Source of the DNA: Escherichia phage vB_EQ1
Direction: 5' to 3' (one strand)
Sequence record: PQ516281
Length of the DNA: 64,000 bases
The position numbers and the translations under genes were made by a program. This document shows, piece after piece, positions 46,682 through 47,083 of the stretch (position 1 is its first letter; every line of letters starts with the position of its first letter). The notes under the pieces were generated by a model, which was given only the letters and a program-made list of their open reading frames with translations, made no database searches and had not been told where the DNA came from.

Positions 46682-47083
46682 TTATAGATTCGGTTTATAT
46701 GATTTAAATGTTTCGAATTCGCCTTTATTCATAAGAGCTTTGAATTCGTCAGGACGCATAGCTTTGTCGTCGATAATCCAATCATATACTGGTTTATGTG
46801 TTAGCAAATTATGGTACTTCAAGCCAATGTTTGCCAAGTTCTGAATCAGACTTGGGAGAATGTCAATTGCTATACGTCCAGGACCTACTGACTTCATACC
46901 GCGAGCAGTGTAAAGCGTTATGGTATGCCCTGCATCATACAGGGCATTAATGGCAGACACCATTTCGACGTCTGGCTTGAAGTTCACGTAATCACGATTG
47001 TTATTCCACTCTGTTATACAATCATCGACATCAAAATAAAGATTAAGCATGTTTTCTACACGGTGCATTAGATTCGTTCCCAT
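46682..47083 (-). CDS. HAD-superfamily phosphatase-like protein (133 aa)
   Basis: Motif I YFDVDDCIT (DxD), TLYTARG (motif II Thr/Ser), K...WIIDDKA (motif III/IV Lys and DD). Confidence 0.55.
   Translation of the reverse strand: MGTNLMHRVENMLNLYFDVDDCITEWNNNRDYVNFKPDVEMVSAINALYDAGHTITLYTARGMKSVGPGRIAIDILPSLIQNLANIGLKYHNLLTHKPVYDWIIDDKAMRPDEFKALMNKGEFETFKSYKPNL

Follow-up and report, generated by a model that had tools for sequence, protein, structure and literature searches.

An open reading frame (ORF) of 133 codons at 46682..47083 on the minus strand of Escherichia phage vB_EQ1 (sequence record PQ516281) was investigated by computational analysis. The window, which is the whole stretch of DNA analysed, was 64,000 nucleotides (nt) long. 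The results indicated, with a probability of roughly 93%, that the gene is that of AfhF of the arabinosyl-5-hydroxycytosine pathway, a cap-less, Mg2+-dependent HAD phosphatase of about 128 amino acids (aa) that acts in a kinase-first order of steps. The identity with AfhF, the HAD fold, the invariant catalytic residues, and the conserved gene order and junction were obtained in this analysis. The ORF reads MGTNLMHRVENMLNLYFDVDDCITEWNN...TLYTARGMKS...THKPVYDWIIDDKAM.

Comparison of the ORF with the PDB by phmmer revealed a match to 9iqw_A (E 3.5e-86), with one substitution over residues 5–133 and 99% identity. The entry 9IQW, released on 2025-07-16, is titled as the phage HY126 encoded D-arabinose 1,5-diphosphate phosphatase AfhF. 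The single difference was Y16 in the window protein for C16 in HY126 AfhF, two residues ahead of the nucleophile. The identity with the HY126 protein held in sequence and in structure, and, judged by its sequence, the product of the window gene is AfhF itself. Sequence searches found 47 homologue clusters at E <= 1e-3. In megablast, the ORF was matched in 169 phage records, with 100% identity to Escherichia phage MRostami-2023e and 99% to RB69, where the counterpart is RB69ORF051c/RB69p051. In tblastn, the phosphatase was found in 370 phage records, mostly from Straboviridae that infect Enterobacteria and Acinetobacter; matches in cyanophages were weak. The ORF is far beyond a chance ORF, because it combines 99% identity to a crystallised protein, the 47 clusters and 370 records, and invariant catalytic positions.

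These positions were determined in an alignment of 28 homologues (98% to 35% identity) from phages of Escherichia, Pectobacterium, Serratia, Yersinia, Proteus, Providencia, Acinetobacter and Shewanella, and from metagenomic sequences. The ORF contains FDVDDCIT (D18, D20), TARG (T59–G62), K97, and then D105–D106; residues D18, D20, T59, R61, G62, K97, D105 and D106 were invariant in 28/28 aligned homologues. In the structural model, the invariant residues were located at the C-terminal ends of strands 14–18, 54–58, 92–94 and 103–105, a predicted layout that is the canonical arrangement of HAD motifs I–IV. Motif I is D18-V-D20-D-C after strand 14–18, which aligned to DLDGT of the Vibrio cholerae protein 1xpj; motifs II and III are T59 (LYTARG) after strand 54–58 and K97 (THKP) after strand 92–94; the acidic pair of motif IV is D105 and D106 (IIDDK) at the end of strand 103–105. 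Structure comparison showed the Rossmannoid alpha/beta core of the HAD superfamily. With all sequence and fold features present, the phosphatase is a minimal, cap-less HAD superfamily member of the GmhB/KdsC/PNKP type. The best NCBIfam model, TIGR01689 (capsule biosynthesis phosphatase; E 6.9e-13, 48.7 bits, far under its cut-off of 162), also spoke for the assignment.

A sequence-only reading of this DNA had proposed a minimal HAD phosphatase in a cassette from the motifs FDVDDCIT, TARG and K...DD, and had named a HAD-fold prediction and conservation of the DxD aspartates as its tests. All of these motifs were present, the fold was predicted from the model and the structure search, and D18 and D20 did not vary among the homologues; the proposal was thus borne out by fold, motifs and neighbours.

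The phosphatase also matched PHROG 1238 (1.7e-42), which, like the RefSeq record, carries the label phosphoheptose isomerase. This function has practically no probability for the window gene: the label is a propagated annotation only, and it is opposed by the complete HAD motif set, the HAD fold, and the fact that the real SIS isomerase of the cassette lies elsewhere (48935–49570). No SIS match to the phosphatase was found in Pfam or NCBIfam, and the label was rejected as wrong.

The phosphatase gene lies in a sugar-activation cassette whose features are listed below.

43021..43569, minus strand: thymidylate-kinase-like nucleotide kinase (RB69 gp45), from the RB69 annotation and PMC13326640 Table 1.
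43571..44470, minus strand: putative first DNA arabinosyltransferase, 299 aa (RB69 gp46:47), from the ORF and PMC13326640 Table 1.
44470..45186, minus strand: thymidylate-synthase homologue (RB69 gp48), a flavin/O2-dependent deoxycytidine monophosphate (dCMP) 5-hydroxylase; Pfam Thymidylat_synt 2.4e-15, activity according to PMC13326640.
45228..45467, minus strand: 79-aa ORF (RB69ORF049c), PHROG 8601, overlapping the stop codon of the U32 gene.
45464..46624, minus strand: Peptidase_U32-family protein (RB69 gp50), a component of the cassette in Mosigvirus; Pfam Peptidase_U32 7.3e-11.
46682..47068, minus strand: coding sequence of the AfhF-type D-arabinose-1,5-bisphosphate 5-phosphatase, 128 aa when read from the conserved start; its orthologues are RB69 gp51 and HY126 AfhF.
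47066..47070, minus strand: TAATG stop/start overlap of the AfhE-like gene and AfhF, a signature of translational coupling.
47069..47083, minus strand: in-frame upstream extension of five codons (MGTNL), part of the longest ORF and probably untranslated in the phosphatase.
47068..48753, minus strand: AfhE-like bifunctional enzyme, 561 aa (RB69 gp52:53 fused), with an N-terminal sugar-1-phosphate nucleotidyltransferase and a C-terminal APH/choline-kinase-like sugar kinase.
48935..49570, minus strand: SIS-domain arabinose-5-phosphate isomerase (RB69 gp55), converting ribulose-5-phosphate to D-arabinose-5-phosphate (Ara5P); Pfam SIS 5.7e-10 and the RB69 annotation.

The cassette gene order was matched in RB69, Bas46, Thanatos, Virsaitis27, QL01 and Lazarus. 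In every phage examined, the phosphatase gene was directly downstream of the kinase/nucleotidyltransferase gene, and the junction overlap was kept in most. As expected for AfhF, the window gene adjoins an AfhE-like gene, and the ThyA-homologue dCMP 5-hydroxylase and the arabinosyltransferase are in the same cassette.

This coupling bears on a different function, in which the protein would dephosphorylate nucleotides or polynucleotides, as a 3'-phosphatase like PNKP or as a 5'(3')-deoxyribonucleotidase tuning the pools of dCMP and 5-hydroxy-dCMP. Such a function was suggested by records of Acinetobacter and Klebsiella phages that name the gene 'putative polynucleotide kinase', and by a Foldseek match in AFDB to a putative 5'(3')-deoxyribonucleotidase, given in Table 1 of PMC13326640. 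However, these similarities concern the generic HAD core and are of the same strength as those to GmhB, HisB-N and MDP-1; the phosphatase lacks a kinase domain; its gene was without exception coupled to that of the sugar kinase/nucleotidyltransferase; and a sugar bisphosphate is the substrate of the characterised orthologue. A nucleotide phosphatase was therefore considered very improbable.

The 5' end of the 133-codon ORF and the 3' end of the upstream 561-aa gene, stop codon included, share a 16-nt overlap (47068–47083), both on the minus strand. The sequence-only reading had given this overlap as one with the start of the next gene; its length was correct, and the partner is the 3' stop of the upstream gene. 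The first five residues (MGTNL) were absent from every aligned homologue, and both the RB69 annotation and the crystal construct start at MHRVEN (M6). The ATG of M6 at 47068 shares 1 nt with the TAA of the upstream gene (TAATG). The same 1-nt overlap was present in RB69, Erwinia phage Virsaitis27, E. coli phage QL01 and Acinetobacter phage Lazarus; in Shewanella phage Thanatos the junction is ATGA, and in Pectobacterium phage PM2 there is a 52-nt spacer, with an in-frame TAA three codons ahead of the MHRVEN start. The ATG at 47083 is formed by the codons (CAATGGGAA) for a conserved Q-W-E motif at the C-terminal end of the upstream gene and is absent where the motif is H-W-E. Because MGTNL is unconserved, RB69 and the crystal construct start at M6, and the TAATG junction is conserved, the phosphatase probably starts at the ATG at 47068 and has 128 aa, with the ATG at 47083 unused. 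A length of 133 aa, as first given, is exact for the ORF and probably five residues too long for the protein. The translation of AfhF is probably coupled to termination of the AfhE gene via TAATG. The Bas46 record annotates the longer form of the phosphatase, with the five-codon extension. In Thanatos, the phosphatase orthologue has 196 aa (L005/L006 6001–6591) and carries a C-terminal extension of about 70 residues, unique among the homologues.

Substrate, Mg2+ dependence and step order were taken from the literature. Lee et al. (Nucleic Acids Research 2026, PMC13326640) demonstrated arabinosylated 5-hydroxycytosine in RB69 DNA and the formation of 5-hydroxy-dCMP by the ThyA homologue with O2 and flavin. 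The same paper summarises He et al. (Nat Chem Biol 2026): AfhE is an Ara5P kinase and UDP-arabinose pyrophosphorylase, which converts arabinofuranose-5-phosphate (Araf5P) to the 1,5-bisphosphate (Araf1,5P2) and later forms UDP-Araf, and AfhF is a Mg2+-dependent phosphatase, which converts Araf-1,5-P2 to Araf-1-P by removal of the terminal phosphate. RB69 gp51 is named there as the analogue of AfhF.

In the pathway proposed for the window phage, the phage SIS isomerase would first convert host ribulose-5-phosphate to D-arabinose-5-phosphate. The kinase domain of the AfhE-like protein would then phosphorylate the anomeric carbon, giving arabinofuranose-1,5-bisphosphate, from which AfhF would take off the distal 5-phosphate. 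Finally, the nucleotidyltransferase domain of AfhE would turn Araf-1-P into UDP-Araf, which donates the arabinosyl group to 5-hydroxycytosine in phage DNA. In the third step, knowledge of the HAD family suggests that D18 would act as the nucleophile that forms the aspartyl-phosphate and D20 as the general acid/base, that T59 and K97 would bind phosphate, and that D105/D106 would hold Mg2+. The order of isomerase, kinase, phosphatase and nucleotidyltransferase follows from the activities of AfhE and AfhF as summarised in PMC13326640; this literature-based order has the same logic as the heptose pathway of GmhA/HldE/GmhB.

The sequence-only reading had the reverse order, with the phosphatase freeing the sugar from Ara5P for re-phosphorylation at the anomeric carbon. 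In this scheme, Ara5P would be converted to free arabinose, and the kinase domain would then phosphorylate C1 of the free sugar, as in the AmgK/MurU system. AfhE is similar to MurU in its N-terminal domain, and AmgK, the partner kinase of MurU, acts on a free sugar; HAD phosphatases are also often promiscuous; both points were counted for the scheme. It is also an older hypothesis that Table 1 of PMC13326640 still carries, with the entries 'dephosphorylates Araf5p to Ara' and 'Phosphorylates Ara to Araf1p'. However, the 99%-identical protein is named D-arabinose 1,5-diphosphate phosphatase in the PDB, and the text of PMC13326640 has AfhE as the Ara5P kinase and AfhF acting on Araf1,5P, both of which put the kinase first. 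The heptose pathway of GmhA, HldE and GmhB has the isomerase, kinase, phosphatase, nucleotidyltransferase order as well. Release of the free sugar was thus judged very unlikely, and this part of the sequence-only reading was not upheld.

Assignment to AfhF with the kinase-first order has several points against it. The substitution at residue 16 is near the nucleophile; in the 28-sequence alignment, residue 16 was freely variable among the homologues. The Pfam scan of the phosphatase ORF gave no family at E <= 0.1, so the HAD assignment had to rest on NCBIfam, the PDB sequence search and structure. An hhalign comparison with E. coli GmhB aligned motifs I–II only, at 10% probability. For the substrate and step order, the sources are the title of the PDB entry and an account of He et al. 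at second hand, and Table 1 of PMC13326640 still gives gp51 the free-sugar reaction quoted above.

The genes surrounding the cassette in the window are of T4-type replication (gp43 DNA polymerase, gp41 helicase, UvsX, and clamp loader). The 6.55-kb cassette (43021–49570) was 100% identical to that of MRostami-2023e, and 154/209 matching records were at least 95% identical. Because of the T4-type gene content and the identities to RB69 and MRostami-2023e, the window phage is assigned, on sequence grounds, to the RB69-like Mosigvirus, a T4-type coliphage. The isomerase gene had NCBIfam matches to KpsF/GutQ (2.7e-32) and KdsD (1.2e-30), both under the cut-offs. The AfhE-like protein matched Pfam NTP_transferase (8.8e-10) at residues 3–99, had weak matches to kinase families at 308–409, matched NCBIfam nucleotidyltransferase models, and belonged to PHROG 4098. 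The thymidylate-synthase homologue matched PDB 9iqc/9ir2 over residues 1–238 (E 4.5e-162).

The 561-aa and 299-aa genes are each a single ORF in the window, and the RB69 reference record splits them (ORF053c/052c and ORF047c/046c). These splits agree with sequencing errors that were described by Thomas et al. in 2018 and by Lee et al. 2026 (PMC13326640). Between the SIS isomerase gene and the AfhE-like gene, there is a very hydrophobic ORF of 47 codons (MKAITIGLLLLMLVMTIYWSLTAPVMIPTLVIGWIMIGLQAKYECFN) at 48795–48938 on the minus strand, with a 4-nt overlap with the isomerase stop; it probably encodes a small membrane protein. Bas46 and RB69 both annotate it as a hypothetical protein; the RB69 form is shorter, and its record notes a similarity to the T4 42-imm intercistronic region. 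No SIS isomerase was found in the Thanatos cassette in the 12-kb region examined. A scan of 42900–49700 for sigma-70 promoters and intrinsic terminators showed no excess over shuffled sequence and is uninformative for a T4-type phage. A transposon-mutagenesis preprint on Bas46 and LC53 contained no essentiality data for the cassette genes.

The U32 gene (45464–46624) was found in 221 phage records, all with at least 80% aa identity, from Escherichia to Shewanella phages; the U32 protein is far more conserved than AfhF. It has four conserved cysteines in the iron-sulphur region and a C-terminal Cys-rich motif. In Thanatos (L006 8746–10136) and Virsaitis27 (L007 4492–6002), a chorismate mutase ORF (Pfam CM_2 2e-8 and 1.7e-11, respectively) overlaps the U32 stop codon, and a Klebsiella phage record likewise has a chorismate mutase annotated after the U32 gene. 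Prephenate is the product of chorismate mutase. The cellular U32 proteins RlhA (needed for 5-hydroxycytidine in 23S rRNA), TrhP and UbiU/V have been implicated in O2-independent, prephenate-dependent hydroxylation; for RlhA and TrhP, the hydroxylase role is implicated rather than directly demonstrated (PMC5727448, PMC6599085, PMC10990095). The phage U32 protein may be an anaerobic, prephenate-dependent cytosine C5 hydroxylase that complements the O2-dependent ThyA homologue.

Several results stand against such a role. BLASTP of the U32 protein to E. coli RlhA and TrhP gave marginal local matches only. The 79-aa ORF of the window, which occupies the chorismate mutase slot, had no Pfam match, and BLASTP found no resemblance to the chorismate mutase of Thanatos; on these results, it is not detectably a chorismate mutase. 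The U32 gene was absent from the cassettes of E. coli Dhakavirus QL01 and of Acinetobacter phages (Lazarus); the idea that its presence tracks facultatively anaerobic hosts was weakened by its absence from QL01, a phage of E. coli. In the literature searched, no paper joined U32, chorismate mutase and phage, and PMC13326640 lists gp50 only as "sugar or heterocycle reductase".

When bacterial and archaeal genomes were scanned with the alignment of the phosphatase family, only two loci were found, one of them on a phage-sized contig. In a Saccharibacteria metagenome-assembled genome, a 30%-identical HAD protein is encoded between a 323-aa kinase-like gene and a 240-aa NTP_transferase gene (L010 880–2985); the 323-aa protein has the AfhE kinase motif HGDxxxSN...IDPRG (E 2e-9). 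This neighbourhood was also counted for the AfhF assignment. A Bacteroidota-like contig (L002 4445–6282) has a fatty-acid hydroxylase gene and a 39%-identical HAD gene overlapping that of a short SIS protein, which is 35% identical to the phage isomerase. In a third contig, the HAD gene comes after PfkB kinase and cupin genes and before an NAD-dependent epimerase gene (L016 1329–2765, L017 710–1758). These bacterial contexts support a general role of the mini-HAD clade in nucleotide-sugar cassettes. It is a tentative idea, more doubtful than probable, that the AfhF-type mini-HAD is no phage invention and marks a cellular pathway, so far unrecognised, to a nucleoside diphosphate (NDP)-pentofuranose or related NDP-sugar; 1xpj and BcbF/EcbF would then perhaps be distal phosphatases of sugar-1,n-bisphosphates, and a glycan locus of this kind was perhaps the origin of the phage cassette.

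This enzyme is already known: publications of 2025–2026 described it together with its structure and its part in the arabinosyl-5-hydroxycytosine pathway. The pathway matters because arabinosylated 5-hydroxycytosine shields phage DNA from restriction and CRISPR systems. The value of the present result lies in annotation, since hundreds of phage records misname the gene and several place its start 15 nt too far upstream. Orthologues were found under the names 'phosphoheptose isomerase' (RefSeq RB69p051, PHROG 1238), 'capsule biosynthesis protein', 'polynucleotide kinase' and 'haloacid dehydrogenase'; the label 'putative phosphatase' was found in the BASEL phage Bas46 only. The kinase-before-phosphatase order should replace the "free sugar" scheme.

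Compared with known families, the phosphatase was like KdsC (Kdo-8-phosphate phosphatase) in being a small cap-less HAD protein downstream of arabinose-5-phosphate isomerase in a sugar pathway. The similarity to the KdsC fold was weak (Foldseek E 0.05–0.2), and membership was rejected, with no KdsC model among the NCBIfam matches at E <= 1. In addition, KdsC follows a synthase step, has a monophosphate (Kdo8P) as its substrate and is not coupled to a kinase or nucleotidyltransferase.

GmhB (D-glycero-D-manno-heptose-1,7-bisphosphate 7-phosphatase, HAD subfamily IIIA) shares the pathway logic, but the phage protein is not a member of that family: no GmhB model was matched in NCBIfam at E <= 1, and the HAD-SF-IIIA match was E 0.03 (14.4 bits, cut-off 44.6). 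In GmhB structures, a zinc-binding Cys/His loop is inserted between motifs II and III. The phage protein has one cysteine (C22) and no CxH...CxC loop, so that the zinc loop of GmhB is lacking, and it is about 60 residues shorter. The substrate of AfhF is a pentofuranose and its partner kinase is APH-like, whereas GmhB has a heptose substrate and a PfkB-like partner kinase. The KdsC/GmhB type given by the sequence-only reading described the cap-less fold class correctly, with neither family model matched.

The EcbF/BcbF family of TIGR01689 is a related sister group of which the phage protein is not a member (48.7 bits against 162). EcbF/BcbF and 1xpj, a structural-genomics protein, belong to bacterial glycan loci and not to a DNA-modification cassette. 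The known system with which the window gene was identified is AfhF of Escherichia phage HY126 (PDB 9IQW; He et al. 2026), with the orthologues RB69 gp51, Bas46 gp145 and DLP3 gp81; compared with HY126 AfhF, the window protein has Y16 and not C16, and the longest ORF of the window offers a five-codon extension that is unused in RB69 and in the crystal construct.
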